From positions 7,762 to 71,761 of the forward strand of contig CAJATL010000226.1 in NCBI GenBank assembly GCA_903944895.1: a stretch of DNA of 64,000 nt. The letters run 5' to 3'. The notes under the pieces were generated by a model. It saw nothing but the letters and a program-made list of their open reading frames with translations, was not told where the DNA came from and did no database searches. The translations under genes were made by a program, and so were the position numbers. Shown here piece by piece: positions 12,001 through 61,854 of the stretch; within the stretch, counting starts at the first letter, position 1; the number at the start of each line of letters is the position of its first letter. Source of the DNA: an uncultured Bacteroidota bacterium (lineage in GTDB: Bacteria > Bacteroidota > Bacteroidia > Bacteroidales > 4484-276).

Positions 12001-13878
12001 TGCAGCGCCACCATAAACAAAAAGCGCGTTTTCCACACCAAATGATGTAGCCCCCAAGCTAAATCTTGCTCCTTTTTTTAATGCTGGATTGTTTATGGTC
12101 TTGTTTATGGTGTTCATTCCCATTGAAGACACGGCAGAAAGAACGCCAAGCCCTGATCCTATAATAGTACCTTTACCGGCAGCAGTTAATGTTTCAAGAA
12201 CGTGATAATCTTTTAATGATAATTCCGGGTTAGCGGATATTTCAGTTCCCTGTCTTAAAATATCTTGTATTGCGTCATATCCACCAAGCATAGATGCAGA
12301 TGGCAGCGCTGCCTTAATCACCCCTTGGGTTAATGGTTTTGTTAAAAATGATTTTGATCCGCGTAACATGGCTTTTTCAGCCATCCTTACGGCTAATTGT
12401 TTTGATGCTCCTGCAGTAACAAACCTTTTCGCTACGTTCTCTGTAATCTTTGCTAACGCTACTTTGGCGGCGTACTTTCCTGGGGCGGCCAAAAGACCGA
12501 ATAGCGGTGCGTCAAATGAAATACTTACGGCCCCGGCAGCACCCCTTTCAATCCAATTTGAAGGATATTTATCTTCATGTATTCTTCCCTCAATCATTTG
12601 AGTTACAACACCCGGAATACTTCCATAAGCTCCCTGCGTAAGAATAAATTCAGCAGATGATTTTGATGCTGTTTGCTTTAAATATTCATCATTGGCAGCA
12701 AGCATGTACTCATTATATGTTTTTACTACCTCTTTATTTACATATTCTTCGAGGGCTGGGCCAACATCTCCATCAACTTTGTTTGTGTAAATTTCAGAAA
12801 ATATTTTTTTGTACTCATCTTCTGATTGTGGATTTCTGGATAATGCTTCTTCGTGAGAAGCCCTCTCAATTTCTGATAAACGCTCCTGTACCTGTGGCTT
12901 TTCGGTAAATTCTTTGATTTTTTTATCTTGGATTGCTCCGGTTAACTCCAATGCAATATCTTGTTGAATTTGCATTGGATTATAATCAGTATCTTCTAAT
13001 TGTTTTAACCTTGCAAATGCTGTTTTAGCGACTGAAAGCACAGCGCTTCCACCAACAACATAATCAGTAATAGTTTTTAGTACGGATTTATCTTGGCCTT
13101 TTACCTCATTTATTTTATCAACAACCCTTTGTTTTCTTTTTTCAATTTCTGAAAATACCTTACTGCCAATTTCTTCTTTTTTACCTTCAATAGTTTCAGC
13201 CCATATTCTTTTGTTGTCTTGGGTTACGATTTCATTGTAAATTTTATCGTCAGCCTGTTTTCCAGATAAATCAAATGCCTTTTCGTTTTTAGGGTCAATA
13301 ACGTAAACCGAACCGTTGAGGGCTGCTTTAAATGCCTTATCGTTCATTGATGTTTCTTTCATCATCACTGGAACGTCGGACATACTAAACTCTCCCGTTT
13401 TCATTGGAGATATATTAGTTTGCTTTCCGGAAGAATCAGGCGTTTCTTGGGCTTGTTTTTGTGGTATGGTGTCACCGACAACTACCGGTTGCTCTGGTTG
13501 AATTATTTGTTCATCTTCTTCTGGCGAAGGGCTTGGAGATTTTGGACCACGCGAGTAAAACCATTTCGACAAGCCTCCCTGAACAGCATCCTGAAAAGTA
13601 GGAATTGGTTCCGAATTGTCTTTTTTTTTTACTTCACTGGCTTCCGGGTGTTTGTTTAAAAATCCAGATACTTTATCTTCTGGGATATCATACAACGAGC
13701 CATTAAGATCATATCGCACTACTTTTTGCTTTGCAACTGGTGTGCTTGTAGCTGCCGGAGGCGGTGTACTTTGTGATTGTTCTTTAGCTTCCGGATATTT
13801 AGCAAGAAATCCATCAATTTTATCGCTTGGGATTGCGTACATTTTTTCACCTACAACGAAATTCTTTACATCTGGCAT
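1..13878 (-). CDS. giant multidomain polyvalent-type virion/ejection protein, partial (>4626 codons; C-terminus lies left of window)
   Basis: Own translation of the minus strand. ATG at 13878 gives MPDVKNFVVGEKMYAIPSDK... The frame stays open and protein-like: checked codon by codon over 13878-11400 and 9420-1, read through elsewhere. It ends at base 1 in ...ISGVTIPTLALWWMNK. No stop lies inside the window, so the supplied track omitted it; the + strand here carries only short shadow ORFs. Confidence 0.85.
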   Translation of the reverse strand, partial: MPDVKNFVVGEKMYAIPSDKIDGFLAKYPEAKEQSQSTPPPAATSTPVAKQKVVRYDLNGSLYDIPEDKVSGFLNKHPEASEVKKKDNSEPIPTFQDAVQGGLSKWFYSRGPKSPSPSPEEDEQIIQPEQPVVVGDTIPQKQAQETPDSSGKQTNISPMKTGEFSMSDVPVMMKETSMNDKAFKAALNGSVYVIDPKNEKAFDLSGKQADDKIYNEIVTQDNKRIWAETIEGKKEEIGSKVFSEIEKRKQRVVDKINEVKGQDKSVLKTITDYVVGGSAVLSVAKTAFARLKQLEDTDYNPMQIQQDIALELTGAIQDKKIKEFTEKPQVQERLSEIERASHEEALSRNPQSEDEYKKIFSEIYTNKVDGDVGPALEEYVNKEVVKTYNEYMLAANDEYLKQTASKSSAEFILTQGAYGSIPGVVTQMIEGRIHEDKYPSNWIERGAAGAVSISFDAPLFGLLAAPGKYAAKVALAKITENVAKRFVTAGASKQLAVRMAEKAMLRGSKSFLTKPLTQGVIKAALPSASMLGGYDAIQDILRQGTEISANPELSLKDYHVLETLTAAGKGTIIGSGLGVLSAVSSMGMNTINKTINNPALKKGARFSLGATSFGVENALFVYGGAALEGRLSEVTSEDFMESVAMLGFMKAKGIAHEISAFKNERAKAKLRKEIKFTAGELHALDKYDFLLPWEKRMSVRDEFGKKKRMADIDMVRPLSEYGLHELIINKNIPESVKRKILFGSKGMAPMNDIPADDVTLRTTEYGAYVDIRDRRGNLLVSEFYDNPADAQQSVDKYNHLSLNNKYLNKLWALPDEQRKRIGEVTMAKLKEEGLLNGIEPYIAMMPSERLPNEQKVVEDLYAEIDRTIDVLAEEKAKAEEVKKLEEEKKKPQPAPTEVKLTNRDALSSVRNKITELTSETEKIQNEDILANGVVTNETLAKMSEIDAQIELLKQQEVDILSIADSEVEKNTKEINAKIDKLSIKIKAIDEKIGNPKSDEEMAQASEEIDKLQPELEKLEAERQVIIDKTREEVLVGEFTPKEQKKVEKPVEQKKPVPPPNPEIKPVTRNDLSVVRNEIFDLNNQIIDLEKEDEKGNAGKIQELRGRVDELTKKENEIVSILEAEEEKKAKEKEYVNLFDHYATNHGSTNTIRYNKKENKLYEVENTARGKIQEISIEDAALKKFKATQRGKNELEIKEAYIDEVKNQYETEIKELIKKHSEKPAQEKPEVTDPAEVQKIKNSIAEGELILKSGKSNGKKLSPDQLSAIQAQVNREKLKIGMPIDERPAGEVDKEPWDMTDSELEYLYKDQKGRIERLFNTSERDSAEVFKDSRNNFYAKRQGVPLMRIGLEQAKELAWEQLNRDGLMPEGKEKEFYESRVLDKLGIKKMPGFKPVTGEEKILHTRKNGEVITLKDVEELIHGEVTLGEIQRKFKIGFDAATEILKNYNTAKGIKPEQSPEIGNKNYKEGKNQLVGRTMTQTIANGERIVGVVKCVSSDDVVPSHNPETFAKNPNFPTNPDGTTVNSSDYENSVAKQGEIERVSLNPDDRMVFQLPIVDKRGIVFSGTNRTAGRQLAAIRGTDKKFTAILKENAEMYGINPNEIDKIKNPMFVFELKEEMPYTVENWAKFNKDDKKTQSPIEKAIEIGKIITDRARRLLYGIYETADRMSDVTSNPKKVKELIKLFEEEGILLPNEMPRYFDKKAITSTAEGVALVNNILLGSSLSEGTIRTLDAAQMGDIRNKILDSIIPLIKNSALGKSSLQKNVETAIGIINEAKKTGQSLEGWASQVNMFEVKNFDAADLAVAIKLEGKFKEFIKNYNAHVGQLETDFETGVSKERTKADIIDEVLKQSLDNYEKVKSNITKFGQDGKGQVKPDAPNPQQPIKRSSAEHKQYVHERFRAEFSKKGIPGQQIDAAIAIMEARAKSWASEDILNRTPDEWYDRIADVGGGEFMDGTTKLYQLPDGRTVNGKSVSPEIVNGFYSPLEKVIIDAKYDKLPAKQWVEKFSQLKGEEAKWTGLTDWLQSQPGSVTKADIQNFLKDNRIEIVEVVKGTNDKIGINDLTVQKTASGNWSVYGQENGLSVLFRTVDKSEAKTVNEAKKIVLDEQNEDGFDNTKHSQYQLEGQKENYKEILVTLPKQGKGVDYETLSDKQLAEIYEKNIGYNPFEAGESRDYVIDLLKANAGAKTDVQFVNDTHYSEPNIAVHLRMNTRVGADGKKVLFLEEVQSDWGQKGKKEGFIGGGLKSDDLEIIESKDSGRNNPFLPHLGNTKIFTIFNKRTKLKSIQVAYTEEKAIEKELFDHNQNNIGKKSIQSAPFVTETASWTKLGLKVALKEAVKQGVDKIAWTTGEQQNDRWSLEKQVDYIQYEDGFGGNRYVDISHKDGITTLYVDSKTGKITEEKNQRIGSVGKNLEDVIGKELSERVLTDKKSGRIEGEGLKVGGKGMKGFYGSPTEGKLGIIGEVAEKLFKQKVSTTDIETKDLTSPDQIGIERNGKKWELMIGEPGEEPKLFDTYEKAVEARNKLGKVKQTQHSIDITPELRAEVEKGLPKFQINPEQAGRLKYKSELPTDHIFRDAVETTEGARVTDEGLIIRAIRYQKPDQSGSNSVRTGVFYLPYKSTDVRHYRNGKIGYGGKEKHEGEILIKKPIFVRGATGGKAPQAAYDQIKGKGAYNDMVAKVHDATLSSPFGQWSNRKDIPEDVANLLTRYNEGSYYSDNYDIAYDMVRVSKQGNTLKYAILENIVAHAVRKAGYDSVLGYSQKRNNHYFISEIFDVRETTYPMRGEESEIHPDFKFQEGEGIKKGALETLKDGKYVIHALESPDFSTMVHEIAHVFEGDLNYIERGVVKRIGGSEAFARGFERYLRDGNAPDPEMQSLFDKFKTWLTDIYQSLVGSPIEKSLTPEVKKIFDRLLTERKAIEEEPEDEIKEVKSYGAKTRYKGLEIKVGEKYWDNRYGDFYTIEKMTTFGEDDVTATLKYNKGQTREENGSFLLYHIDAKQHTPFNAGNFGAKPDVQPDVKPKEKITFARNDEKIKKIMGEIDGLLGELGKPVFETGGLSKLQPFVGVIGKLVQVGYYKIEDVAKYLAEKGYNDWLPKLQEAYQIFRDESDLSLEVKNSLSNGKEISGFDYRRFVPGKPNEEGVEAGGNVAGGSVNNGPTGTTGAVRPPIRIADEGSLPSPSKEHIVDGKYDIDENQRFASNLAIDRFKVAKGKSFLLADGAGVGKTRMIEVIANEMSGEGKVLIVSLGNVIEDSFVKDAKALGIDLNKFEIGTYDDLRNGKIGQGEYALAIYDESQNLKNPLSGKAIAQSKVNSKHNMFVSATPMDKPEHAVYFLSEITDIPQKEIQKRLGVEIEWKTKNGETFPIVRIPGGVKEYIVKLLELRKEAITKGAMVRREYPFFGDIGDEKHEMNDKHPYSNPQTVAKIEEIHNDRIDNAMSIVIARTVKDVVMNKFTGLNTSSIQGLSEKDMYAKLKKEYESKSLSQNYWVLHSKIEEFKKQERFTMLANIDKINEVGKFDVVYNKVKKALAAGKQVVVVASYVNKVKVKAGSAGSKYGFYEREIPTEETLIYRVEQALAKEGIGVAKIFGGNKNKAYSREQDKFQSGKAKVLLMTSKSGGTGINLDDVVGNSPREMIIATGEYSGDVLEQVLGRVSRRNTKSPAKVTMVYFPNTSDNNRKKRSDEKRKVIRAIVAGTEDLDKARLEGNTKEDEGVIDEIDGGPVRVPKQPAEKKKPVIEDFGTNGIIVKESFDIKDALKSIGAKWIGSQKGWMLPKTKQEEAQAIIDDFNEGSPEGGVNAMAAGGKTQVRDMNMELDDQTGGKKPVDAMQITKEAEKRFDLKIRKGRMHAGSRTLGIFKPWARVIRTKQHKMLDVLAHEIAHDLDYKFFITKGRASKLTPEMKQELADLDYDPSQKRPLEGFAEYMRLYASGADDSIRLAAPKFMAWFEGTWKPANKEVAENIDWYREQVTQWRMQGARLRALNSIDMMDEGKLTRAYKNTKEFLTSKDKRTEVSLKVASQWKDKLSVIDWVFNRMMQQSGVDFVRPSEHAGQIAASRQKTAALTTNRFVLGGTYNNAFEKTGKSLKEVMSPVTKTKKDFEDAILYAWALRAIDLHNRVDKDNNSTPINTGMPLDEAVHLVDTLYTPERQKFTEELTQFMSMVMDYLVEAGGLSQKAKDRILQQNPSYIMLKKVLDKGTFSGGGGNKIFNVGSPIKSFTHGGSDKNIRMPIKMMIREVESIVNAANSIRVARAFIDFMADKQSHKYGLGNWFEKISSDKKKVQFGIRQIEDQLEKIGADLTDADMESLLDVWVNAGYTQSMKNENIVWIPDPETGKKVFYQVHPLFYEAITKGMRPTHLNWIMTTLLVKPNMMLKLGATAFKVSFAVITNPLRDIPTGGLQSKYKGGGRLDKQLMGIWAETFGTGKYINEFRRSGVEMSNFLGEDIDNMNSLLQEAMLKKKMDPGVTWAATPWEAAKQVADITLQNVGYHIIKHPLKSYREALSITESGVRYAEFDAVMRSYEGRIKAAYQAGDQAEVYKLKRDRAIEATNAANEVTLNFKKAGTYGEVLNMMVPFFNPRLQGTFKMIDMLSKKQQQGIDRKMDSRLRYLLKAISGVTIPTLALWWMNK
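2150..2330 (-). other. zincin-like HExxH motif 2 within giant ORF
   Basis: LDVLAHEIAHDLDYKF; codons at 2239-2256. Confidence 0.5.
2900..4260 (-). other. SNF2-family helicase domain within giant ORF
   Basis: Motif I LLADGAGVGKT (4207-4227). Motif II IYDESQNLKN (3994-4008). Motif III SATP. Motif V LLMTSKSGGTGINLDD (3008-3046). Motif VI LGRVSRRN. Confidence 0.8.
5250..5480 (-). other. zincin-like HExxH motif 1 within giant ORF
   Basis: FSTMVHEIAHVFEGDL; the HEIAH codons lie at 5383-5397. Confidence 0.5.
6850..8000 (-). other. conserved uncharacterised module within giant ORF
   Basis: FYSPLEKVI..LPAKQWVEKF..KGEEAKWTGLTDWL ... HLRMNTRVGADGKKVLFLEEVQSDWGQKGKKEGF ... DKIAWTTGEQQNDRW. I recall similar strings in plasmid and phage polyvalent proteins but cannot name the family. 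Confidence 0.3.
9150..9420 (-). other. ParB/Srx-like (DdrB-ParB type) region within giant ORF
   Basis: SSDDVVPSHNPETF ... QLPIVDKRGIVFSGTNRTAGRQLA. The SH(D/N)P plus G(T/N)NR pattern is typical of ParB-like domains in polyvalent proteins, recalled from memory. Confidence 0.4.
9540..9640 (-). other. FtsK-gamma-like winged-helix motif within giant ORF
   Basis: VTLGEIQRKFKIGFDAATEIL resembles the FtsK gamma signature (s.lQRr.riGynRAarii), recalled from memory. Confidence 0.35.
10200..11350 (-). other. Lys/Glu-rich coiled-coil region with internal repeat, within giant ORF
   Basis: Heptad-like K/E-rich sequence. A repeated block occurs twice: TNRDALSSVRNKITELTSE and TRNDLSVVRNEIFDLNNQ. Confidence 0.5.
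12000..12550 (-). other. Gly/Ala-rich hydrophobic, membrane-insertion-like segments within giant ORF
   Basis: Translated segments: GAAGAVSISFDAPLFGLLAAPG, GKGTIIGSGLGVLSAVSSMG, LGATSFGVENALFVYGGAAL. Confidence 0.4.
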
Positions 13879-27253: not shown

Positions 27254-29626
27254 CTAATTTGAAGTTACTAATTTATTCTCGTTCTGCTTATCTAATTCTT
27301 TTAATCTGTAATCGTACTCGAACTTTCTTTGCATTTTTTCGAGGTCTGCTTGTTTTTGTGCCTCGATGATTGCAAGTTCTTTTTGGGTTTCATCTTCTCG
27401 CTTTTGTATTTCATCTTGTGCCTTTAATTTGTTTTGCTGAATAGTATTATCGCTCATTTGTTGTTGGGTGGCTGCCGCGCTTTGTTTAGCCGCCTGATCC
27501 GCCTCAACTTCTTTTTTTGCAATGTAAATCCTCGCATAACTTATCCCTGCAAAGGTATTAATTAATTGTTCGATAAGATAAAGATACTCACTGTACATAA
27601 GTGCTGGAACACCATTCTTGCCGCCAGCCAATGCGTTCATAGCAGCGTTCCTTATTTCTGATTTAAGGGCATCATCCGGAGCGGCGACCATATGTATTCC
27701 GAAAGCAATAGGTGGGTCAAAGCCAGCCGACTTCAATGCGATTACGGCAGCATCCCCGATGATTCTTTTATATGGTGTATCATCATAAGACAAAACAGCG
27801 GCCTGTACCCTTAAAGTAATTGATTTTGCCATCTGTTCTTTCATAGAAAGATACCCGGCATACACACTTCTTAGAGTATTATTTGTGGCAGATACGGCTA
27901 CTTGAGTAACAAATTTTCCCTGCTCACCGGAAGGAGATTGTGAGTTTGAGCTTAACCGGTCTATTCCAGTGATCTCCATTAACTGCTGATATGCTAACTC
28001 GAAACTCATGGCAGCATCGTTGACAACGGTACCAAGTCCTCCTTTTAATTGCTCAATTGGCTTGTGATTAGTAGGGGGAAATTCTACACCTTCCGGGGTA
28101 GCGTTCCAGATGATATGTCCTTTTTGAGAGTACAGCCTTAAGCTGTCCATCGGCTTCCACTTTTCATCGTCCTCCATGGTCATACCCATCAACGACCCAT
28201 ATTCAATAGCCAGACCAGGAGGGGGTGAGTTGGCGATACCATTCTGCAGCCGGTAAAATGTAAGAGCAATCTGATCAAGCATTGGCTTACAGTTTTCCAC
28301 TGGTGGCTTCTCGTCGATCTTGTAAACCTGAATAGGGGTAACCGGTTTTCTTCCGGAATAATCGAAAGCTACATCATGGGTCCTTCCAAAGTCATAAATG
28401 ACATCTGAACCCAAAATCCACTTGGCACCATAAAGAACTTGGGTAGTCTCCTTGGTGGTTAGCTTCTTGTCGTTATTAAAAACCCGGGGTTTTCTTGATG
28501 TACCATTACTTCTTTTTCTGTATGGCTCCGGGAACTCCTCCTCCATGCCATCATCGAGTTTTCTTGTAGTGAAGTACTTGCTGTCATTGCTTAACCAGTA
28601 AGCCACAAGAACCGGAATCCGGCATTTGTAAAAATCATAAAAACCAAGTTCATCAACAGTCTTATCGTAACTCGAGCGATTGCCGTAAACACCCACATAA
28701 TTACCGGCCAGTCCATACAGATCATCATCTGTCATTTCTGTTTCATGCTTAAGGTCAGCAACGGTAATGTATTCGATAATACCCCAATAACTCACGTCAC
28801 TAAAATCTTCTTCACGCGAGCTTTCGATAATCAGGTTGTTTACGTCAAGGTGCCTTGTTCTTACTTCCCCCAGCGCATAATCAAAGGTGTCCATTGTGGC
28901 GGTAATTCCATAGGTAAGAATATCCTTAATGATGGCCCGTTTAATTTTTTTGTCGTTGGAGGCTTTTAGTGTATGCTCCAATGCTCTTTGAAGCCCGATC
29001 TCATAAGTAAGTTTAAACTCACCCATCTGCTCGAACATTCCTAATTCATCAACGCTTGCCGGATAAATCACCTGATCTTCGCCGGTCTCTATCTCCATGG
29101 CCTTCATAAAGGCATCGAGTTTTGATTTTAGCGCCCCCTGTGCGAATCTTTTGAATTTTATGTCTTCACGTAGGTCTCCGGATTTTTCGTCAATAGCATT
29201 GATATTAACCATGTGTTCCTGCCCTTCCATGATACCAATTATGGTGTTCATATATTTAGGCATCGGGGACATGGTATCGTGGAAGTTAATGTTTACAAAT
29301 CCATCTCTGGAAGATTTATTTTTTGGTGGGTTTTTGGTGTCACCTCCATCTTGATATTGTGGTGAGGTTGTGTCTGACTGAAATTCATCAAGGATAAGGT
29401 CTTTGTACAGATTGGTGTCCTGGCGACCCCGGGCATAAGAAAGGTTAATAGCAAACCTGGCAACATCATCTGGTGTTATCGCGCAATTACCCTTACAATA
29501 ATTTGAATAAATGTGTTCTACGAATGATTTACTCCATTGAGAGGAATTTTGCTTGTAATCCGGGTCAACATCATCTGATGGCCTTTCAAAAAACCCTCTT
29601 TTATAGTTATTGCTAATGTCAGCCAT
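27254..29626 (-). CDS. putative portal protein (790 aa)
   Basis: Size, position upstream of scaffold and capsid, and a coiled-coil C-terminal tail. Confidence 0.6.
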   Translation of the reverse strand: MADISNNYKRGFFERPSDDVDPDYKQNSSQWSKSFVEHIYSNYCKGNCAITPDDVARFAINLSYARGRQDTNLYKDLILDEFQSDTTSPQYQDGGDTKNPPKNKSSRDGFVNINFHDTMSPMPKYMNTIIGIMEGQEHMVNINAIDEKSGDLREDIKFKRFAQGALKSKLDAFMKAMEIETGEDQVIYPASVDELGMFEQMGEFKLTYEIGLQRALEHTLKASNDKKIKRAIIKDILTYGITATMDTFDYALGEVRTRHLDVNNLIIESSREEDFSDVSYWGIIEYITVADLKHETEMTDDDLYGLAGNYVGVYGNRSSYDKTVDELGFYDFYKCRIPVLVAYWLSNDSKYFTTRKLDDGMEEEFPEPYRKRSNGTSRKPRVFNNDKKLTTKETTQVLYGAKWILGSDVIYDFGRTHDVAFDYSGRKPVTPIQVYKIDEKPPVENCKPMLDQIALTFYRLQNGIANSPPPGLAIEYGSLMGMTMEDDEKWKPMDSLRLYSQKGHIIWNATPEGVEFPPTNHKPIEQLKGGLGTVVNDAAMSFELAYQQLMEITGIDRLSSNSQSPSGEQGKFVTQVAVSATNNTLRSVYAGYLSMKEQMAKSITLRVQAAVLSYDDTPYKRIIGDAAVIALKSAGFDPPIAFGIHMVAAPDDALKSEIRNAAMNALAGGKNGVPALMYSEYLYLIEQLINTFAGISYARIYIAKKEVEADQAAKQSAAATQQQMSDNTIQQNKLKAQDEIQKREDETQKELAIIEAQKQADLEKMQRKFEYDYRLKELDKQNENKLVTSN

Positions 29627-29773
29627 TCCTTATTTACAGTTTGGGGCAAATTTACTGTAAAACATAATAACTTGTTTTTTTATTTAAAGAACAGCTTAAT
29701 CACCCCCATTAAGAAATTTATTTTCAGCCTTTTCTGATTCTGAAAAAAACCCAGATTCATCGTCCTTGTAAAA

Positions 29774-30154
29774 TTACTTACCGCTACCATCGTGCTTACA
29801 GGAACCTTCCGGGCATTTTGCGGCAAAAATCTTTTGTTCATACGGAGAAGCCCATACGCCATCAATACAAGTGTCATTCATCGACAAATTTGGGATATCC
29901 CGGACACAGCCCTTACACCAATCCTTTAAATCAACTTTAATTTTCGGGGTAATGCTTTCAACCTGAACGCCAAGTTCCACCATCAAATCATCGTGCATTT
30001 GACACAATTTATCAATGATATTGTAAGGATCATCACCACGTTCAAGCATTTTAATGACACTATGAAAAAGTGGAGACTTGTAATACCTTTCGCGGCCATT
30101 TTTGAACCGATCAAAAATTTGACTTGATTCGACTTTAATTTTTATGCTTTCCAT
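29774..30154 (-). CDS. hypothetical Cys-rich protein (126 aa)
   Basis: Track ORF, preceded by the leader motif GTAAAACTAAACTATAAA. Confidence 0.55.
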   Translation of the reverse strand: MESIKIKVESSQIFDRFKNGRERYYKSPLFHSVIKMLERGDDPYNIIDKLCQMHDDLMVELGVQVESITPKIKVDLKDWCKGCVRDIPNLSMNDTCIDGVWASPYEQKIFAAKCPEGSCKHDGSGK

Positions 30155-30172
30155 TTTATAGTTTAGTTTTAC
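30155..30172 (-). promoter_or_regulatory. leader motif copy (GTAAAACTAAACTATAAA-ATG)
   Basis: Reverse complement of + strand TTTATAGTTTAGTTTTAC, directly upstream of the ATG at 30154. Confidence 0.45.
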
Positions 30173-30606
30173 GATTTAATAAAATTTGTCTCAACTCCAA
30201 GCATACCAGATTTTGGAATAATCACTTCCTTTACCGGCTTGATTGTTTTAAACTTTTTCTTTTTTTTCTTTTTCTGCTTCTTCTTTTTTTTATAAAAATC
30301 AAAATCAGAACGTTTCATTTTAAAAGCCCCATGAACTTTTACATGGCAATTTTTACACAAAGTAATAAGATCGCTTAGGTTGTTGTGTTCATTTTTGTAA
30401 TGTTCGTATGTAATATGATGAACATGAAGGCTATCCTTACTCCCACACATAACGCAATTATTACCATCTCTTGATAGCACAACCTTCCTAATTTCCTTCC
30501 AGTAGTCAGATAATAGATAATCATGGTAATTTAGCTCTACACACCTTGATTGAAGTATTTTAAATACTTTATCAGTCATTCTTTTAATGTTTTTGCCAAA
30601 TATCAA
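30169..30606 (-). CDS. HNH endonuclease with poly-Lys tail (145 aa)
   Basis: CVMCGSKDSLHVHHITYEHYKNEHNNLSDLITLCKNCHVKVH: paired Cys motifs plus H-N-H. Confidence 0.8.
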   Translation of the reverse strand: MIFGKNIKRMTDKVFKILQSRCVELNYHDYLLSDYWKEIRKVVLSRDGNNCVMCGSKDSLHVHHITYEHYKNEHNNLSDLITLCKNCHVKVHGAFKMKRSDFDFYKKKKKQKKKKKKKFKTIKPVKEVIIPKSGMLGVETNFIKS

Positions 30607-30621
30607 ATTTAACTCAAACTA

Positions 30622-31341
30622 TTAGTACCATCTAACTCTCTTAATGGTAATCCCTTTGTGCTGGTAAACCAACCCATTAAAGACAAAGAAATAGCCGTCT
30701 AACTTTTTATAATTAGAAATTGCCTTAAATTCAGCTACACTCATTTCAGACTTTTCAATTATCTCTTTTACTTTAATGTATCCGTTTTTTACCAAACTTT
30801 TTAAAATGTTTCTTGCTTTTGATTGTGAACACCTAAAAACTTTAGCCAAACTCCTGGTTGATAATAGCACATTCTCACAATACTTCTCACCTACCCTAAA
30901 GTACTTATTGAATTTCTTGTACTTTTTTGGGTCAAATCCTTTTACTAATTTCTGCTTGCGATGATAATAGCTTTTTATGCTTCTGCACCAACCCTGTTTT
31001 TTTTGATTACATTCGATCAGCTTAGTATAAACCCTTCGCATGAACGCACCAAATGAAGTCCATGGGCGAATATCTAACTTTTCATATTCACCAACATTAA
31101 ATTCTTGTTTTTTAAATTTTAAATTTTTACCGTCCCGGATCAGGTATTTTATTTTTACCAGATGCCCTACATATTTTCGTACTGTGTTAACTGAAAATCC
31201 GGTTAAAACAGCAACCTTTTCTGGCGTGTAATCAAGTATGATAGGGTACAGGTATTTAGACCTAAGAAAGTAGTAAAAAGCAAACTCGTTGCTTTTAACA
31301 GCTTCATTTACATCTACTTTTATTGATTCCCTTACTTGCAT
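30622..31341 (-). CDS. winged-helix DNA-binding-like protein (239 aa from ATG 31341; track start 31407 less likely)
   Basis: SVNTVRKYVGHLVKIKYLIRDGKNLKF and SKARNILKSLVKNGYIKV are HTH-like. The 31342-31407 extension contains a terminator hairpin. Confidence 0.55.
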   Translation of the reverse strand: MQVRESIKVDVNEAVKSNEFAFYYFLRSKYLYPIILDYTPEKVAVLTGFSVNTVRKYVGHLVKIKYLIRDGKNLKFKKQEFNVGEYEKLDIRPWTSFGAFMRRVYTKLIECNQKKQGWCRSIKSYYHRKQKLVKGFDPKKYKKFNKYFRVGEKYCENVLLSTRSLAKVFRCSQSKARNILKSLVKNGYIKVKEIIEKSEMSVAEFKAISNYKKLDGYFFVFNGLVYQHKGITIKRVRWY

Positions 31342-31345
31342 GGCG

Positions 31346-31383
31346 TTAAAAATAAAAAAGCCCAACCACAGGTGTGATTGAGC
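31346..31383 (-). terminator. intrinsic terminator-like hairpin
   Basis: GCTCAA-tcacacctgtgg-TTGGGC followed by TTTTTTATTTTT on the minus strand. Confidence 0.5.
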
Positions 31384-31523
31384 TTTGTATGAGATGCTTA
31401 GCGCCATTGTTTAAATAACCGGTGACGAGCCGATCCAATGAAGAACTATTTTCAATATTTTTAACCAAGCATGTCATATTCTGTATTTTAATGTTGGGCC
31501 GTCAAAACCAACAATTGTTTCCT

Positions 31524-31596
31524 AAAAAAAGCCCCGGAGAGTTACCGTAACCGAGGCTAACTAAACTCTTAAACCCTAAAAAAAGACAAATTTTAC
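31524..31596 (-). ncRNA. candidate small RNA 2 (promoter box, seed AGUUUAGUUAGCC, terminator)
   Basis: Downstream of the TATCTTTG box (31603-31610). Contains GAGTTTAGTTAGCC, then the hairpin AGCCTCGG..CCGGGGCT and T7. No ORF. Confidence 0.4.
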
Positions 31597-31602
31597 GAGC
31601 AA

Positions 31603-31610
31603 CAAAGATA
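31603..31610 (-). promoter_or_regulatory. Bacteroidota-type -7 box TATCTTTG
   Basis: Part of the exact 12-mer TATCTTTGTTGC, which is shared with the box at 31716-31723. Confidence 0.4.
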
Positions 31611-31641
31611 GTCAGAATTTTTCAAAAAGCAAGAAAAAAAT

Positions 31642-31708
31642 AAAAAAACCGGAAATATTTTTCAGGTATCTCCGGCCAACTAAACTAAATGTGTGATATG
31701 GAAGTAAA
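31642..31708 (-). ncRNA. candidate small RNA 1 (promoter box, seed AUUUAGUUUAGUUGG, terminator)
   Basis: Downstream of the TATCTTTG box. Contains ATTTAGTTTAGTTGG, then the hairpin CCGGAGATA..TATTTCCGG and T7. No ORF. Confidence 0.4.
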
Positions 31709-31715
31709 AGCGCAA

Positions 31716-31723
31716 CAAAGATA
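31716..31723 (-). promoter_or_regulatory. Bacteroidota-type -7 box TATCTTTG
   Basis: TATCTTTGTTGC, 5 nt after the TerL stop. Confidence 0.4.
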
Positions 31724-31728
31724 ACAAA

Positions 31729-33948
31729 TTATCTAATATTTTTCCTTGAAAAAAAATCATTCATTGAAACAGTTTTCTTTTTATCCGGATTAGTCCGATC
31801 CATAACAACGTCTTTACTTCCCAGGTACGACCCTCCAACCGCTACAAACAAGTCAAAGTCAGTAAGCTCATCAACACCCTTAATGGTTTTGGCTTGCTGT
31901 AAGATTTCGATATGCTTCTCCCGGAACCAGTGATCGGATAAATATTTTTCATGGGCATAGAAAATATCCTGTTGCACCGGACCCCGGGTATAGAAACCTG
32001 GTGTAAGATTTTGTTTGCCGTCTGGCTTCCGGCCGTACTTCAAATATCCTAAGTACCCTCTTTTCCTAAAGTGCGACCAGATCAAAGGAACGTTAATTTC
32101 CGGAAACATCATAGCGCCATAGTACACACACATCATTAACATATCTTCCGCGTAATCATCCGGGTCATGCGGCCTGAACAGGTAGGTGCAAACATTACGG
32201 TAAGTCTGCCAGTCCTCCAATGGCGTATCATCATCATCAATGGAGGTATCACGGTTAAAGAACACATTACCTCCACCGTATGACTTTCTGGTTTCGTTGG
32301 TCTTTAAAAACGAATATGGGTCAGCGCTGGCAGTAAAGCGATTTCCATCTTTAGGCTTGTAGGTCTTAACCATTTTGGTAGTGTCCCAGATAGAAACGCT
32401 GTACTTCCTGTTCGATTCATCTGCCGGCAGTAGTAATGAAGTCCTGAATCTACCATCTTTGTTCTTGACAAACTCAACGGTACCATCCTTAACTTTCCCC
32501 CTCCATCTGAAATTTCCCTGCTGTACGCCAATTTCTTCATCAGTCATAAACTGCAGCTTCTTGATCTGCATCATAATTTTGTGAATAGGAAGACCCGATC
32601 CGGAGCCAGAAGAAATAAAACATTCATCGAAGCTCATTGGAGCCAGACGCACCTCCTCGTCAAAATTCTTCCGGGCATCAACGCTGTCTTCATCAAGATA
32701 AGCAGCCTTCACATTTTCCAGGTAACGTTTTGCTCCTATGACCTTTCCGGTTGCGTCATAGGTAAGCATAGGAATACGCCAGTAATCCTCTTGTACCGGA
32801 TCATCAACAATAGCATTACCGAAAATATCAATAAACCCATCCAGACAAACGTATGAAGGAATAAACAGGTTGTACAGCCCGGTTACGGTTTCGCCGTTGG
32901 CGTTTCTCTCTTTGTACATCGAAGCCCTACAAAGATTGTAAAAATTCTTTCCGCCCTGGTTAGTCATTTCCCCAACCGTGGAGGTCTTTATTGTCAGTCC
33001 GTGGATAATTCTACCATTAGCTTGAGATAAAGCTTTCTTTACAACCATGTGCCTGGCATACACATCTTCCTCTTTTGTCTTCCCGGTCTCGTCATCGTGA
33101 TAGAAGATAAGTTTATCACCATCATACCAACCCCTGTTAGCAGAATCGGCAAAAGTGATTTTAGATTGAAGGCCGGTTTCCACATTGGCAACCCCACCCT
33201 TACCCCCGATGTTCACGGTAGGCGCATCGAAGTTCATTCCCGATACCTGGGCTGTGGTGCCGGTGAAATTCGGTTTAAAGAAGAATGGTAATTTCTTCCA
33301 GGGATCACGGCACTTTTCCAGATATGCTTTCTTGGCTGACGGACCATCCATGGACTGAATACCACCATGGACGTTAAATGTTCTGGAAACAATTTCATAG
33401 AGAATAGATTCTGCTTTGTATGTAGCACCTTCCCTTCTATGTTTTGGATAGTTAAACCCATAACACAACCTCCGGCCAAGGTCGGTGCCATCTGGTAGCT
33501 TGGTGTCCAGAAAACAAAATCTCGCAAAGTGAAAAAACAGGTAATCCCGGTAACGATATTGTGGAAGTCCGGAATCCAAATGCCAGAACCCGCAATAGAA
33601 ATAATGCCACCCATCCATGTAAGTGGCCTTGCCGTTCACGAAAAACCAGTAACCATTAAGCCGGCGTTCCCATTGAAGTTTTATCCAGGCAATCTCCGGG
33701 GCATATTCCTTGGAGTTTTTTTTGAGCTTGTTGTAAATATCCTGTAAGGTCTCCGAGGACTTTTGAAGTTTCAATAACCTGATGGGCATCTGTGGAGGTT
33801 TCCACATCTGTTTTTTCGGGTCTTCTCCGTAACCATCAATTTCTTTTTCCGGTGGAGGTTTAGGAAGGTAATAAGTGATCGGGGTAAGAACCGGGTCACC
33901 TTCATTGAAAACTATAAATTCATCTGCTTTTTGATATTTATGAGCCAT
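31729..33948 (-). CDS. terL: putative terminase large subunit (739 aa)
   Basis: Size, position next to the portal region, an ATPase-like KHRREGATYK segment with an acidic IFYHDDETGK Walker-B-like stretch, and a C-terminal Asp-rich nuclease-like half. Confidence 0.65.
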   Translation of the reverse strand: MAHKYQKADEFIVFNEGDPVLTPITYYLPKPPPEKEIDGYGEDPKKQMWKPPQMPIRLLKLQKSSETLQDIYNKLKKNSKEYAPEIAWIKLQWERRLNGYWFFVNGKATYMDGWHYFYCGFWHLDSGLPQYRYRDYLFFHFARFCFLDTKLPDGTDLGRRLCYGFNYPKHRREGATYKAESILYEIVSRTFNVHGGIQSMDGPSAKKAYLEKCRDPWKKLPFFFKPNFTGTTAQVSGMNFDAPTVNIGGKGGVANVETGLQSKITFADSANRGWYDGDKLIFYHDDETGKTKEEDVYARHMVVKKALSQANGRIIHGLTIKTSTVGEMTNQGGKNFYNLCRASMYKERNANGETVTGLYNLFIPSYVCLDGFIDIFGNAIVDDPVQEDYWRIPMLTYDATGKVIGAKRYLENVKAAYLDEDSVDARKNFDEEVRLAPMSFDECFISSGSGSGLPIHKIMMQIKKLQFMTDEEIGVQQGNFRWRGKVKDGTVEFVKNKDGRFRTSLLLPADESNRKYSVSIWDTTKMVKTYKPKDGNRFTASADPYSFLKTNETRKSYGGGNVFFNRDTSIDDDDTPLEDWQTYRNVCTYLFRPHDPDDYAEDMLMMCVYYGAMMFPEINVPLIWSHFRKRGYLGYLKYGRKPDGKQNLTPGFYTRGPVQQDIFYAHEKYLSDHWFREKHIEILQQAKTIKGVDELTDFDLFVAVGGSYLGSKDVVMDRTNPDKKKTVSMNDFFSRKNIR

Positions 33949-45865: not shown

Positions 45866-46360
45866 ATGAAAAAAGAATTAAAGAAGGTCAAACAGTTTAA
45901 AGGCCGGCAAATGGATGGCTTTAGTGCCGTTCTGTACCTCAACGATGTTAAAGTTTGTGATGTTATTAATCACGGCGATGGGTCAGCTTTTTATTATGGC
46001 CCATTGCTTACCGGCCAGCAAAAAGAATTATTGAGTGAATTTCAGATGATCGTAAGTAGTTTACCTCCCATCAAAGTAGATGATAACCTTTCCTTTGAGC
46101 CTGATATGGATTACTACCTTTCAGAATTATTGGAAACACAACAGGTGCAGGTAAAACTCGAGAAGCTGTACAAGAATCACATTGTTTTCGGGATTCCTGG
46201 AAATTGGTTTGAATTAAAAAAACTCAAAACACACCTACCTATATCGGAGCTATCCGATAAACACCTTCAAATCTATGTTAATGAAATTAAGTTAAAGCTA
46301 AAGCCAAACGAACAGATTTTAAACACAAATTTAAGGCCGTTACAAGTCGGCAATGAATAG
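45866..46360 (+). CDS. hypothetical protein (164 aa)
   Basis: Track ORF. Confidence 0.6.
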   Translation: MKKELKKVKQFKGRQMDGFSAVLYLNDVKVCDVINHGDGSAFYYGPLLTGQQKELLSEFQMIVSSLPPIKVDDNLSFEPDMDYYLSELLETQQVQVKLEKLYKNHIVFGIPGNWFELKKLKTHLPISELSDKHLQIYVNEIKLKLKPNEQILNTNLRPLQVGNE

Positions 46361-46411: not shown

Positions 46412-46702
46412 ATGCGAATAGACAAATCGAAATTAAGAACAATGATCGTAGGGATTAATGATCACGTTGCCCAGCAATATTCTCAATCCTTGCTTGATCA
46501 GAAACTTGCTAACGGAAAACATAAATACCGGAGACTGGAAACGTTTACCGGCTTTGATATTGTTTTGCCGGTGTACACAGAAAGCTCGGCCAGTTATAAG
46601 GTAGTGTTTTCTTATCAATCAGAACCCGCTCAAATTTGGTGGGATGCTTCAATAGTTAATATTCATACTGTAAGAGAACAACAAGTAAGTATGTTTGCTT
46701 AG
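46412..46702 (+). CDS. hypothetical protein (96 aa)
   Basis: Track ORF. Confidence 0.55.
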   Translation: MRIDKSKLRTMIVGINDHVAQQYSQSLLDQKLANGKHKYRRLETFTGFDIVLPVYTESSASYKVVFSYQSEPAQIWWDASIVNIHTVREQQVSMFA

Positions 46703-47156: not shown

Positions 47157-47200
47157 GTTTAGTTTAGTTTAGGCGGCACCCCAAGGGGTGCTGCTTTTTT
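47156..47200 (+). terminator. intrinsic terminator preceded by the antisense version of the leader motif (possible 3'UTR-derived sRNA)
   Basis: GGTTTAGTTTAGTTTAGG, then GCGGCACCCC-aa-GGGGTGCTGC, then T6. Confidence 0.6.
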
Positions 47201-49726: not shown

Positions 49727-49760
49727 CTACAATAAACGCATTTAACTTATCAGGTAAATC

Positions 49761-49800
49761 AAAAAAGGCGACCTCGTTAATTCGGGGCCGCCTTTTTTTT
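49761..49800. terminator. bidirectional terminator between convergent operons
   Basis: A6-GGCGACCTCG-ttaatt-CGGGGCCGCC-T8. Confidence 0.75.
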
Positions 49801-49802
49801 GT

Positions 49803-49952
49803 TTAGAGCAGTATCAATATCATAAAATCTTTCAATGCACGGATTATTCCGCGATCCTTGGCAGCCTCCCTTGCTGCGGTTGGCGAGAATCCTTTTCTGA
49901 TCAGAAGGTTGTACCTCCGCTGTTCAGACTTATTAAGCATAACTTCTTTCAT
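49803..49952 (-). CDS. small hypothetical protein (49 aa)
   Basis: Own translation: MKEVMLNKSEQRRYNLLIRKGFSPTAAREAAKDRGIIRALKDFMILILL. The stop abuts the terminator. Confidence 0.4.
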   Translation of the reverse strand: MKEVMLNKSEQRRYNLLIRKGFSPTAAREAAKDRGIIRALKDFMILILL

Positions 49953-49985
49953 TTTGCAAAGATACTACATATTTGTTAAAATCAG

Positions 49986-60981: not shown

Positions 60982-61081
60982 GTTTTTTTTGTCGTTTGCA
61001 TTAACGCTACAAAATTAATCAATACACAATACCAAGGCTGTTAAAATTCGTTAATGTTTATTAATGGGATTTGGTTAAATG

Positions 61082-61110
61082 AAAAAACCCCAGCCATTGA
61101 AGGGTGGGGC
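61082..61110 (-). terminator. intrinsic terminator
   Basis: Minus strand: CCCCACCC-ttcaatgg-CTGGGG followed by T6. Confidence 0.6.
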
Positions 61111-61202
61111 CTTAACAAGTACATGATGCGGCAAGATCAGAATAGCAGTCCGAGCCACAAAAGTATTACCTGCTACAATGTTTTGTTTTTTTATTTGAAT
61201 AA

Positions 61203-61673
61203 TTATGGTAAGAGCCTTCGTCCCAGGTAAACAATATATCCTCCCACCAATAACCCGGCAAGAAATGGGATGTACCAAACATAAGTTCTTTTTTTTGTAA
61301 TGATTGTATCGTTAGTGGACTTGGTTAAATTGTATTTTGCAGTAAGCCGCTCCTCCGCCTGCCGGATGATGGCTGAACTGTCAACACTTACCAGTATCTC
61401 AATGGTGTTGTTTTTAAATACAGTGCTTATCTTCATCTTGCCCTTTTCCTCGTCAAGCTGCCTGATAAGAACATTACCCAGGCTGTCGCACTCGAAGTAA
61501 GCCTTAATTGATGTACTGTCTGCCGGGGTAACAATGGTATCATATTTCGTGATTAACTTCTCGCTGTACACCACACTGTCAACCTTGACATACTGCGTTG
61601 ATACCGTTTGCTTGGTCTTACACCCAAACATCATCACGACACTCATTAAAACAAATAGCTTAAGTATTCTCAT
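61203..61673 (-). CDS. lipoprotein with C-terminal TM segment, u-spanin-like architecture (156 aa from ATG 61673)
   Basis: MRILKLFVLMSVVMMFGC lipobox. C-terminal WYIPFLAGLLVGGYIVYLGRRLLP. Confidence 0.5.
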   Translation of the reverse strand: MRILKLFVLMSVVMMFGCKTKQTVSTQYVKVDSVVYSEKLITKYDTIVTPADSTSIKAYFECDSLGNVLIRQLDEEKGKMKISTVFKNNTIEILVSVDSSAIIRQAEERLTAKYNLTKSTNDTIITKKRTYVWYIPFLAGLLVGGYIVYLGRRLLP

Positions 61674-61854
61674 TGCATTTTTTCCCGAATTGATTACCAT
61701 AATTTTGCCCCACAATCATTACACCAGCAATACCTACACCAGTAACAAAGTACACACTGTCTTTAAGCAAGTAGCTTAGTATTGAAGAAATAATCATCAA
61801 CACAAAGCCACTTGCTTTTGTGAATGTAATTGTTAACCTGAAAACTTTACTCAT
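61660..61854 (-). CDS. two-TM small protein, holin-like (64 aa)
   Basis: TM1 ASGFVLMIISSILSYLL. TM2 VYFVTGVGIAGVMIVG. Charged C-terminus. Confidence 0.45.
   Translation of the reverse strand: MSKVFRLTITFTKASGFVLMIISSILSYLLKDSVYFVTGVGIAGVMIVGQNYGNQFGKKCNENT

Follow-up and report, generated by a model that had tools for sequence, protein, structure and literature searches.

Two ORF-less promoter-terminator units behind the terminase gene of a Bacteroidota phage as candidate small RNA genes

The locus studied here raises the question of what is made from a short stretch of phage DNA that carries promoters and intrinsic terminators and very little coding sequence. The stretch lies on the minus strand between the large terminase gene (TerL) and a wHTH gene, in the window, which is the whole 64,000-nucleotide piece of DNA that was analyzed. 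The initial annotation had described it as three promoter/terminator cassettes without ORFs and read all three as candidate phage sRNA genes. The Bacteroidota promoter consensus consists of TAnnTTTG at -7 and TTTG at -33 (PMC7366714), and the two exact copies of TATCTTTGTTGC of this -7 type that had been reported after TerL were found as described; they are the only copies in the window, both are on the minus strand, and the first -7 box lies 5 nt beyond the TerL stop codon at 31729. Units 1 and 2 share one anatomy, in which an exact TATCTTTGTTGC box is followed by an unpaired, ORF-free leader of 34 to 40 nt, then by AGTTTAGTT(G/A)GCC, a hairpin, and a T7 run (Table 1). The absence of ORFs also held up, given that neither unit contains an ATG or an ORF of 12 codons or more, the longest TTG frames being 11 and 8 codons, and a hairpin with a T7 run was seen downstream of each box. 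The seed string said to be common to both units fits unit 1 only as it was written; the sequence found in both is AGTTTAGTT(G/A)GCC. The units repeat with a period of 109 to 124 nt, and the GC content of the locus is 0.33 to 0.35 versus 0.40 to 0.44 in the flanks.

Table 1. Coordinates of the features at the post-TerL locus and of related elements elsewhere in the window
Feature	Position	Strand	Remarks
TerL, large terminase, 739 aa	31729..33948	-	PHROG 6681 'terminase large subunit', E 3.8e-65
P1	31712..31723	-	-7 box TATCTTTG at 31723-31716 plus TTGC; identical to P2; motif match
Predicted sRNA1, about 66-72 nt	31642..31711	-	Transcription start inferred; leader with UUCCAU and UUUAGUUUAGUU, then terminator
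Block AGTTTAGTTGGCC, common to unit 2	31674..31686	-	Reverse complement of start-proximal motif AACTAAA(C)
T1 hairpin, 10 pairs (2 G-U), loop 9	31648..31676	-	Followed by T7-A-T7 (31648-31634)
-33-like CTTG	31630..31633	-	19 nt upstream of P2 -7 box; motif match
P2	31599..31610	-	-7 box TATCTTTG at 31610-31603 plus TTGC; motif match
Predicted sRNA2, about 70-77 nt	31524..31598	-	Leader UUUUUUUAGGG ... AGUUUAGUUAGCC, then terminator
Block AGTTTAGTTAGCC, common to unit 1	31555..31567	-	13-mer shared by the paralogues
T2 hairpin, 8 pairs, loop 13	31530..31558	-	Followed by T7 (31530-31524)
Element 3, leader-like	31346..31523	-	No recognizable promoter; 43-codon ORF 31477-31346; fold z-score -2.67
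T3 hairpin, 13 pairs	31386-31357	-	Followed by T6AT5, ending at 31346
wHTH gene, 239 aa	30622..31341	-	True start ATG 31341; HTH_36, E 3.2e-6
AACUAAACUA, at -14 to -5 of the ATG (30154) of a 126-aa ORF	30159..30168	-	Best bipartite predicted sRNA1 site
Fourth ORF-less box-to-terminator cassette (WIN-4)	61078..61165	-	TACTTTTG, 45 nt, hairpin 61112-61085, T-run
GTTTAGTTTAGTTTAG, then strong terminator (47173-47194, T6)	47157..47200	+	Directly after the stop codon of a DUF6573 gene

In the minimum-energy folds, nucleotides 1 to 34 of predicted sRNA1 are unpaired and its hairpin has an energy of -12.4 kcal/mol, while the 40-nt leader of predicted sRNA2 is largely unpaired. The terminator hairpins lie 39 and 44 nt past the boxes of units 1 and 2, on the same strand, and T1 is predicted to double as the terminator of TerL. 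A scan of the sequence upstream of the P1 box found no YTTG at the distance expected of a -33 element; across the clade, YTTG stands 19 to 20 nt upstream of the box in seven cassettes, six of them in relatives. The minus strand is the functional strand. T1 has a folding energy of -12.4 kcal/mol on this strand versus -9.6 on the plus strand, and T2 of -12.9 versus -9.0; because of their G-U pairs, all three hairpins of the region are 2.8 to 7.5 kcal/mol more stable as minus-strand RNA.

The individual parts differ in how far they exceed chance. TAnnTTTG alone is not enriched (74 observed versus 75 expected in the window), and the 12-mer TATCTTTGTTGC taken alone is weak evidence, given that two or more matches at up to one mismatch occurred in 12 of 100 shuffles. 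The shared string AGTTTAGTT(G/A)GCC has two matches versus 0.11 expected, a count reached in 1 of 100 shuffles. Compared with 40 dinucleotide shuffles, the window holds 13 strong terminators versus 5.6 +/- 2.5 and three box-then-terminator cassettes versus a mean of 0.3 and a maximum of 2, about 10-fold over chance, and two of these three cassettes sit 113 nt apart behind TerL. Related elements occur elsewhere in the window. The WIN-4 cassette precedes a separate promoter, TAATTTTG at 61017, that belongs to the integrase gene, and the segment at 47157-47200 carries the anti-AACTAAA string of units 1 and 2, here in the mRNA 3' end of a protein gene. An intact moron with a TATCTTTG box, a 50-aa ORF, and a terminator is present at 49964-49755.

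The third element is of a different kind. The hairpin and U-tract reported at the end of the region are there, and the status of a cassette is lost, given that the element has no TAnnTTTG box and contains a 43-codon ORF starting with ATG. The start of the wHTH gene is fixed at 31341 by its homologues, found in L057 (7672-8364; 32% identity, E 5e-20) and in L060 (7960 onward; 38% identity, N-termini aligning at residue 1). A further in-frame ATG of this gene lies upstream at 31407, within element 3. No homologue of the 43-aa ORF or of element 3 DNA was found in any related locus fetched. To judge by its sequence, element 3 is a terminator-ended, ORF-containing leader before a conserved wHTH gene and not an sRNA cassette. 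We considered a 6S-like RNA and rejected it: element 3 has a full-length match to Bacteroidales-1 at 19 bits versus a threshold of 60, and this match is noise because the relatives' gaps match unrelated families equally weakly or more strongly, driven by their terminators (e.g., PrrF at 34.6 bits).

The same address is occupied in related phages. In 8 of 8 lineages at 56 to 65% TerL identity (L051/L094, L054, L055, L057, L060, L061, and L095), a noncoding gap of 390 to 1000 nt lies right behind TerL and contains box-leader-helix units, which mostly end in a U-tract; 46 more distant relatives, at 48% TerL identity or less, showed no such units. The number of units and the adjoining cargo vary. 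L054 has five units in tandem with no protein gene before portal, whose gene has its own box, and elsewhere the cargo is a tRNA, HTH, metallophosphatase, or HNH gene or nothing, with a tRNA-Met at this locus in L051, L052, L094, and L061. Promoters, pre-terminator blocks, and stems are conserved across the clade, while the RNA bodies cannot be aligned. Between L051 and L094, the promoter and the first 45 leader nucleotides are about 88% identical versus about 68% for the 3' coding DNA of TerL (alignment read by eye), and their helix has one compensatory pair and a freely varying loop. L057 and L060 both keep the box, the stem, and the U-tract as well as a block, TTTTTGTCTGTTT(T)GGA, immediately 5' of the terminator. 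A protein identical to TerL is present on 13 contigs, the longest of 74,098 nt; variation within the species is uninformative because the five assemblies of this phage (the window and four others) are 100% identical in the region.

The block shared by units 1 and 2 is the reverse complement of AACTAAA/AAACTAA, and AAACTAA is the most start-codon-proximal 7-mer of the phage. When all 7-mers are ranked by how strongly they are enriched in the 35 nt that precede 84 ORF starts, AAACTAA comes first (p 6e-10) and AACTAAA fourth (p 6e-8), and this enrichment was equaled by 4 of 168 same-composition permutations, all of them related words; the link of the blocks to the initiation-region motif was found post hoc. 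The motif AACUAAA(C) is carried by at least 10 phage genes, mostly in the plus-strand block at 43-48 kb, plus the 126-aa ORF at 30154. At the 30154 site, AUGGAA would pair with the UUCCAU of predicted sRNA1, and the predicted duplex spans about -13 to +9 at -14.9 kcal/mol. Tested against 96 phage initiation regions, the duplex energies were no better than those of shuffled seeds (63% and 54% of shuffles did as well). U-rich RNA pairs with any A-rich initiation region. TTTAGTT, the reverse complement of AACTAAA, precedes 3 of the 13 strong terminators. As for a putative seed, the leaders are unpaired in the predicted folds and the 13-mer is common to the paralogues, but the block has no alignable orthologue.

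Motifs of the same sense recur in the leaders of the clade. UUUAG was found in 10 of 19 leaders versus 3.3 expected and the anti-start motif YUYCAU (e.g., UUUCAU) in 7 of 19 versus 1.55 expected (P 0.0005), and their order often mirrors 5'-CUAAA..AUGAAA-3'. In each of the cassettes L057-1, L060-1, and L055-1, a stretch of 9 to 11 nt is perfectly complementary to sequence that spans a start codon of the same locus. In the late-region initiation regions of relatives, the motif is weakly present (7 of 58). Alternatively, AACTAAA could act as a signal at the level of DNA, or could belong to junctions that are rich in stop codons.

We propose that units 1 and 2 encode sRNAs of about 70 and 75 nt that are made by the host polymerase and pair with translation initiation regions, a reading to which we give roughly an even chance of being right. 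The sRNA interpretation of the initial annotation is thus retained for these two units, with support from their anatomy, the same locus in relatives, the strand, and the motif complementarity, and dropped for the third. The units would be autonomous, ORF-less, moron-like genes whose minus strand is transcribed by host primary-sigma RNA polymerase, starting a few nucleotides past each TATCTTTG box and stopping at the hairpin and U7. Each RNA would have an unpaired U-rich 5' part of 34 to 40 nt, and the AGUUUAGUU(G/A)G block 5' of the terminator, preceded by UUCCAU in sRNA1, would pair with AACUAAA(C) 2 to 20 nt upstream of AUG. Such pairing at initiation regions may occlude ribosome entry, and host targets are also possible. 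By the same logic, the cassette blocks of L057 and L060 predict that UCCAAACAGACAAAAA should be the top start-proximal k-mer in their genomes. A wider hypothesis, which we regard as speculative and unlikely, is that an environmental clade of Bacteroidota phages keeps an expandable post-TerL array (1 to 5 copies) of host-transcribed sRNAs directed against initiation regions, with leaders antisense to AACUAAA-spacer-AUGAAA. Acting collectively, these would shut down the marked genes (here, those of the 43-48 kb block), either to time expression or to silence it during lysogeny, and a third member of the system would reside in a 3' UTR, as the (GUUUA)3 tail of the 47.2 kb mRNA.

Besides the Pas sRNAs discussed below, the phage-encoded sRNAs of enterobacteria include DicF, AgvB/AsxR, and lambda OOP, and to our knowledge Bacteroidota lack Hfq and ProQ. 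Our full-text literature search found no paper on regulatory RNAs of Bacteroidota-infecting phages. Canonical intergenic sRNAs of Bacteroides are defined by a TSS plus an intrinsic terminator, and GibS of B. thetaiotaomicron targets translation initiation regions through a seed in its single-stranded 5' part (PMC7366714). Units 1 and 2 resemble GibS-type sRNAs in their TAnnTTTG promoter, intrinsic terminator, low GC, unpaired 5' region proposed for initiation-region pairing, and lack of a known chaperone. They differ in being phage-encoded, about 70 rather than 145 nt long, arranged in tandem at a fixed post-TerL locus, and without sequence similarity to GibS. Prophage Pas sRNAs conserve their 3' end together with a seed that abuts or overlaps the terminator, while the first 40 nt diverge (bioRxiv 10.64898/2026.05.13.724894). 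The products of the two units would likewise be small, terminated, phage-carried RNAs whose paralogues keep the 3' end and a putative terminator-adjacent seed and diverge in the 5' part; however, the Pas and enterobacterial sRNAs are Hfq-dependent and Proteobacterial with mapped host or prophage targets, whereas the targets predicted here are the phage's own initiation-region motif.

Instead of encoding sRNAs, the units could be cis-acting, promoter-proximal attenuators, the chief competing explanation, which we nevertheless judge rather unlikely. The boxes would then drive the wHTH, HNH, and 126-aa genes here and variable cargo in the relatives, T1 to T3 would terminate conditionally and would yield to an antitermination factor of phage or host origin or to translation through the hairpin, and the short RNAs would be by-products. 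Phage lambda offers a precedent in pR', 6S RNA, tR', and Q antitermination, with a promoter, a close strong terminator, and downstream genes without a promoter of their own, and the pyrBI leader is one for translation-coupled attenuation. A terminator between a promoter and a promoterless gene, as at pR'-tR', is found at T3 and the wHTH gene, whose ATG lies 5 nt past the T3 U-tract with no -7 box between T2 and the ATG, and also in L057, L060, and L095; in all four, the next gene begins 5 to 80 nt after the terminator with no box between. In L051, L094, and L061, the homologous promoter and leader lack a U-tract and continue into the tRNA and genes, and these missing U-tracts, together with the boxless downstream genes, fit a cis-acting leader. 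In the window, L060, and L057, ATG ORFs of 43, 39, and 30 codons, respectively, extend across the final terminator (sequences read by eye), which for element 3 is a pyrBI-like feature, and the in-frame upstream ATG (31407 here, 4571 in L095) likewise gives a frame across the terminator. Unlike lambda pR'-tR', however, the units are in tandem, and no antiterminator gene or qut/put-like element was identified; Pfam found no antiterminator or RNA-binding domain in 38 window proteins, most phage proteins here having no match at all. No alternative anti-terminator fold was predicted in the leaders of units 1 and 2. Stacked attenuators feeding nothing would make little sense in L054, where five strong cassettes precede a portal gene with its own box and no dependent gene, and WIN-4 too is followed by a separate promoter. 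Attenuation also leaves unexplained why blocks conserved between paralogues complement the initiation-region motif.

Morons are autonomous promoter-gene-terminator units inside the late operons of phages, and units 1 and 2 are like them in having their own host-type promoter and terminator between late genes, a low GC content, and variability among relatives. Unlike morons, the units have no ORF, so that the product would be the RNA itself. It is distinctly improbable, in our view, that they are operon punctuation or decayed morons without RNA function, with T1 as the TerL terminator and the rest as promoter and terminator shells left behind by small genes that were lost from the interval between TerL and portal, a low-GC hotspot of recombination. 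The variable cargo, the low GC, the unconserved RNA bodies, and the intact moron with the same box described above would fit such decay. Nevertheless, ORF-less cassettes persist in eight lineages, the adjoining coding DNA is less well conserved than their promoters, pre-terminator blocks, and stems, among which the one compensatory change was seen, and two specific motifs are enriched in the leaders.

Very improbable, too, is a role as protein-binding or decoy RNAs that do not act by base pairing, for instance as UAG-repeat sites for a HutP/TRAP-like factor, as RNA polymerase or ribosome decoys, or as anti-defense RNAs. UAG does occur two to four times just 5' of the hairpins in units 1 and 2, at 47157, and in L054-2 and L057-2, and the tandem amplification in L054 suggests a dosage effect. 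A HutP/TRAP-type attenuator, however, calls for regularly spaced (G/U)AG triplets plus the cognate protein; the spacing of the UAGs here is irregular, and Pfam found no HutP, TRAP, or ANTAR-type domain in the 38 window proteins scanned. No similarity to an Rfam family was detected, CRISPR-associated RNAs included. That the plus strand is functional instead, with AACTAAACTAA-ATG at 31678-31692 as the real translation start of a micro-ORF, is scarcely credible: the motif is at once followed by an ATG and an 11-codon ORF (sequence read by eye) and gene callers put opposite-strand ORFs in L053, L094, and L096, but that strand has neither box nor terminator there and weaker hairpins, unit 2 has no plus-strand ATG, and L051 and L094 differ by indels of 24 and 38 nt that disrupt the opposite-strand ORFs so called.

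Searches for known identities gave no gathering-level Rfam match at the locus, no tRNA or tmRNA remnant by ARAGORN in the window, no DNA match by blastn in 50,697 phage records, and nothing in an exact-pattern scan of IMG/VR for the box plus block. An all-against-all blastn-short comparison of the relatives' gaps recovered promoters and T-runs only, and an nhmmer profile built from the relatives' leaders missed unit 2. A replication origin beside the DnaD-like wHTH gene was rejected, given that there is no GC-skew switch at 31.5 kb, that the skew tracks gene orientation, and that L054 has the array without the wHTH gene. CRISPR-repeat or Racr-like mimicry is probably not involved; neither the period of the units nor their having a terminator each is what an array would show. 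We also rejected (TTTAG)3 as a general companion of terminators: its 29 matches in IMG/VR are by our estimate about the chance number and lie mostly upstream of start codons rather than beside terminators, and unrelated phages, too, have (TTTAG)n with no terminator next to it.

If the units are real sRNA genes, they would form a compact, testable pair whose predicted regulon is recognizable by a 7-nt motif, would make the position directly behind TerL a conserved place to look for such genes in metagenomic phages, and would offer natural short promoter and terminator parts for Bacteroidota. If they are attenuators instead, this would suggest that a conserved wHTH gene is controlled by a hitherto undescribed antitermination system. 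The search for a host among genome contigs returned phage-sized contigs only, binned into assorted MAGs, and the cultured phages in which similarity to TerL was detected all infect Flavobacteriia.

Units 1 and 2, the two box-to-terminator cassettes on the minus strand 3' of the large terminase gene (TerL), are plausible sRNA genes, with an anatomy matching that of GibS and other canonical intergenic sRNAs of Bacteroides. The initial annotation had reported two exact copies of TATCTTTGTTGC, and these are indeed present (31723-31712 and 31610-31599, minus strand) and are the sole two in the window. The lack of an ORF was likewise borne out, given that ATG is absent from both units, as was a third hairpin followed by a U-tract (T3, in element 3 before the wHTH gene). 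The minus-strand orientation was upheld in silico: G-U pairs occur in all three hairpins, and the minus-strand RNA is 2.8-7.5 kcal/mol more stable. The string described before each hairpin fits unit 1 only; the block common to both units is AGTTTAGTT(G/A)GCC (2 matches versus 0.11 expected). In predicted folds, the first 34-40 nt of each unit are unpaired. The TAnnTTTG box alone is unremarkable (74 observed versus 75 expected in the window), and so is the 12-mer TATCTTTGTTGC by itself against chance. Strong terminators number 13 versus 5.6 +/- 2.5 in shuffles, and box-to-terminator cassettes number 3 versus 0.3, two of the three sitting 113 nt apart 3' of TerL.

Features of the phage window, with strand and supporting detail
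Feature	Coordinates	Strand	Detail
TerL, large terminase	31729-33948	minus	PHROG 6681, E 3.8e-65
Unit 1 hairpin (T1)	31676-31648	minus	10 pairs, then T7-A-T7
Unit 2 hairpin (T2)	31558-31530	minus	8 pairs, then T7
Element 3 hairpin (T3)	31386-31357	minus	13 pairs, then T6AT5 ending 31346
ATGs preceded by AAACTAA/AACTAAA	13404, 30154, 33948, 54224, 55008	minus	
ATGs preceded by AAACTAA/AACTAAA	43039, 43559, 44107, 44747, 45111, 46412, 47973	plus	
TAG-GTTTAGTTTAGTTTAG (block string 47157-47172), then 9-pair GC hairpin + T6	47157-47200	plus	directly 3' of DUF6573 gene stop
Type-P3 twister ribozyme RF03154	46328-46402	plus	44.6 bits vs gathering score 39.9, E 2.8e-6
Intact moron, TATCTTTG box, 50-aa ORF	49755-49964	minus	10-pair terminator 49795-49764 + T-run
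Fourth ORF-less cassette, box TACTTTTG to terminator	61078-61165	minus	

The window covers most of a phage genome of ~74 kb; contigs encoding an identical TerL protein number 13 and reach 74,098 nt. The host is likely a member of the Bacteroidota, given that Flavobacterium, Cellulophaga, Tenacibaculum and Maribacter are the hosts of the only cultured phages whose TerL is detectably similar (28-30% aa); the promoter consensus of that phylum, TAnnTTTG at -7 and TTTG at -33 (PMC7366714), would thus be applicable. A minus-strand gene run from 36.6 down to 13.9 kb comprises, in order, TerL, the RNA units, a wHTH protein, an HNH endonuclease, a 126-aa ORF and a 790-aa protein. The TerL-portal interval (29000-32000, from the RNA units to the 126-aa ORF) has a GC content of 0.33-0.35 versus 0.40-0.44 around it, and by comparison of gene content it is a plasticity hotspot, since the cargo there differs in each relative. 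Elsewhere, a giant single ORF (1-13404, minus) extends at least 4468 codons from ATG 13404 and runs off the window start, with no recoding, given that in-frame stop codons of every kind are absent. A tyrosine integrase gene at 59884-60981 suggests a temperate lifestyle.

No close DNA relative was found in the phage collection or IMG/VR, and the region is identical in five assemblies of this phage. TerL homologues gave eight lineages with 56-65% TerL identity, and all eight carry a non-coding gap of 390-1000 nt directly 3' of TerL. Each gap holds a TAnnTTTG box, a U-rich leader of 40-60 nt, a GC helix enclosing 3-140 nt and, mostly, a U-tract next; YTTG lies 19-20 nt upstream of the box in seven cassettes of the clade. 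None of 46 IMG/VR relatives with TerL identity of 48% or less has such units. Between L051 and L094 (83% TerL identity), conservation is ~88% over the promoter and the leader's first 45 nt versus ~68% for TerL 3' coding DNA, as read from the alignment by eye; the helix changes from GGCCGGGA/TCCCGGCC to GGCCGGAA/TTCCGGCC with one compensatory pair, and the loop it encloses ranges in length from 32 to 95 nt. L057 and L060 (71% TerL identity) both keep the box and, directly 5' of the terminator, the TTTTTGTCTGTTT(T)GGA block, along with the stem TAGCCC/GGGCTA and the U-tract. Conservation in these two pairs, the closest available, falls on the parts predicted to be functional, a pattern shared with prophage Pas sRNAs, in which the 3' end and terminator-adjacent seed are kept and the 5' part is variable. 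The RNA bodies are otherwise unalignable across relatives and a profile built from the relatives' leaders did not find unit 2, so homology across the clade lies in position and architecture and has no statistical support from the sequences themselves. The units matched no Rfam family, and full-text literature searches gave no account of a regulatory RNA from a phage of Bacteroidota.

The best-supported model, to which we give about even odds, takes units 1 and 2 to be autonomous morons that lack an ORF and encode sRNAs pairing with AACUAAA initiation regions. Host RNA polymerase would transcribe them into sRNAs of ~70 and ~75 nt, the unpaired leaders of sRNA1 and sRNA2 would pair with initiation regions bearing AACUAAA, and T1 would double as the end of the TerL message. 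The reverse complement of the shared block, AACTAAA(C), lies 2-20 nt upstream of start codons in at least 10 phage genes. When all 7-mers are ranked by enrichment in the 35 nt that precede each of 84 ORF starts, AAACTAA comes first (8 of 18 copies, p 6e-10) and AACTAAA fourth (7 of 20, p 6e-8), and only four overlapping words among 168 same-composition permutations of AACTAAAC reach an equal count. TTTAGTT has 5 of its 20 genomic copies just 5' of three of the 13 strong terminators. Of 19 clade leaders, 10 contain UUUAG (against 3.3 expected, P < 0.0005) and 7 contain the anti-start motif YUYCAU (against 1.55, P = 0.0005), often in the order 5'-UUUCAU...UUUAG-3', the antisense image of 5'-CUAAA...AUGAAA-3'. 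A two-part duplex is predicted between sRNA1 and the initiation region of the 126-aa ORF (UAGUUUAGUU with -14 to -5, UUCCAU with AUGGAA; -14.9 kcal/mol), and the first cassettes of L057, L060 and L055 are each perfectly complementary, over 9-11 nt, to a stretch spanning a start codon of the locus they belong to. The link between block and motif was found post hoc, the predicted pairing is no better in duplex energy than that of shuffled U-rich seeds, and the motif is weak at late-gene starts of relatives (7 of 58). AACTAAA could instead act as a signal in the DNA or belong to junctions rich in stop codons, and the start-proximal motif, often embedded in TGTAAACTAA(C)TAAAT, may serve as a translation signal or processing site, or as a promoter specific to this phage.

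The main rival, which we consider unlikely, casts the units as promoter-proximal attenuators that control the wHTH-HNH genes. Genes begin straight after terminators with no intervening box, and in L051, L094 and L061 leaders without a U-tract run into a tRNA and genes, as attenuation would have it. Arguing against it, L054 carries five tandem cassettes (period 109-124 nt) and then, with no protein gene in between, a portal gene served by a box of its own, and no antiterminator domain was detected in the 38 proteins scanned. Weaker alternatives to the sRNA model hold that the units are decayed morons or just punctuate the operon, that their RNAs bind a protein or act as decoys, or that the plus strand encodes micro-ORFs.

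Of the three mini-cassettes proposed as sRNAs in the initial annotation, units 1 and 2 stand as candidates and the third does not. Element 3 has no TAnnTTTG box and contains a 43-codon ORF (31477-31346). The wHTH protein is conserved (32% identity to the L057 gene, E 5e-20; 38% to that of L060), and its true start is ATG 31341, 5 nt downstream of the T3 U-tract, given that its N-terminus and that of the L060 homologue align from residue 1; an in-frame upstream ATG (31407) falls within element 3. A terminator-ended element also precedes the homologue by 80 nt in L057 and 27 nt in L060 with no intervening box, and an ATG ORF of 30-43 codons, read by eye, traverses the pre-wHTH terminator in all three phages. 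On these grounds of layout, element 3 is best described as a putative leader/attenuator or small-ORF cassette of the wHTH gene. Its assignment to Rfam Bacteroidales-1 (suggested 6S RNA) was rejected, as the full-length match of 19 bits against a threshold of 60 equals terminator-driven junk in relatives.

Several other elements were observed. The element 3' of the DUF6573 gene, in which a strong terminator follows the block string, provides stop codons in every frame and shares its anti-AACTAAA string with the sRNA candidates; it may be a 3'-UTR-borne member of their family. The twister ribozyme separates ORF 45866-46360 from ORF 46412-46702, and the start-proximal motif AACTAACCTAAA overlaps its 3' end. 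The fourth cassette sits between ORF 61203-61715 and the integrase promoter TAATTTTG (61017). The intact moron is at a junction of convergent gene blocks, and its mRNA would be nearly leaderless, since ATG 49952 is only 4 nt after the box. Among the relatives, a ~190-nt non-coding stretch (L051 3030-3215, L094 2555-2735), >90% conserved with several hairpins directly upstream of tRNA-Met(CAT), has no Rfam match and may be a new type of structured RNA. In L054, ~300 nt 3' of the five cassettes (6880-7180) are GC-richer, have no called gene and a possible 29-codon ORF, and end in a sixth terminator, which closely precedes the promoter of the portal gene. The TerL of L061 (4210-7536; P0004, 1108 aa) harbours an intein that includes a homing endonuclease (Hom_end, Hom_end_hint, LAGLIDADG_3), and in L055 (1-1323) a Y1 (IS200/IS605-type) transposase fragment, a GIY-YIG/NUMOD endonuclease and a Cas12f1-like TNB-domain ORF adjoin late genes.
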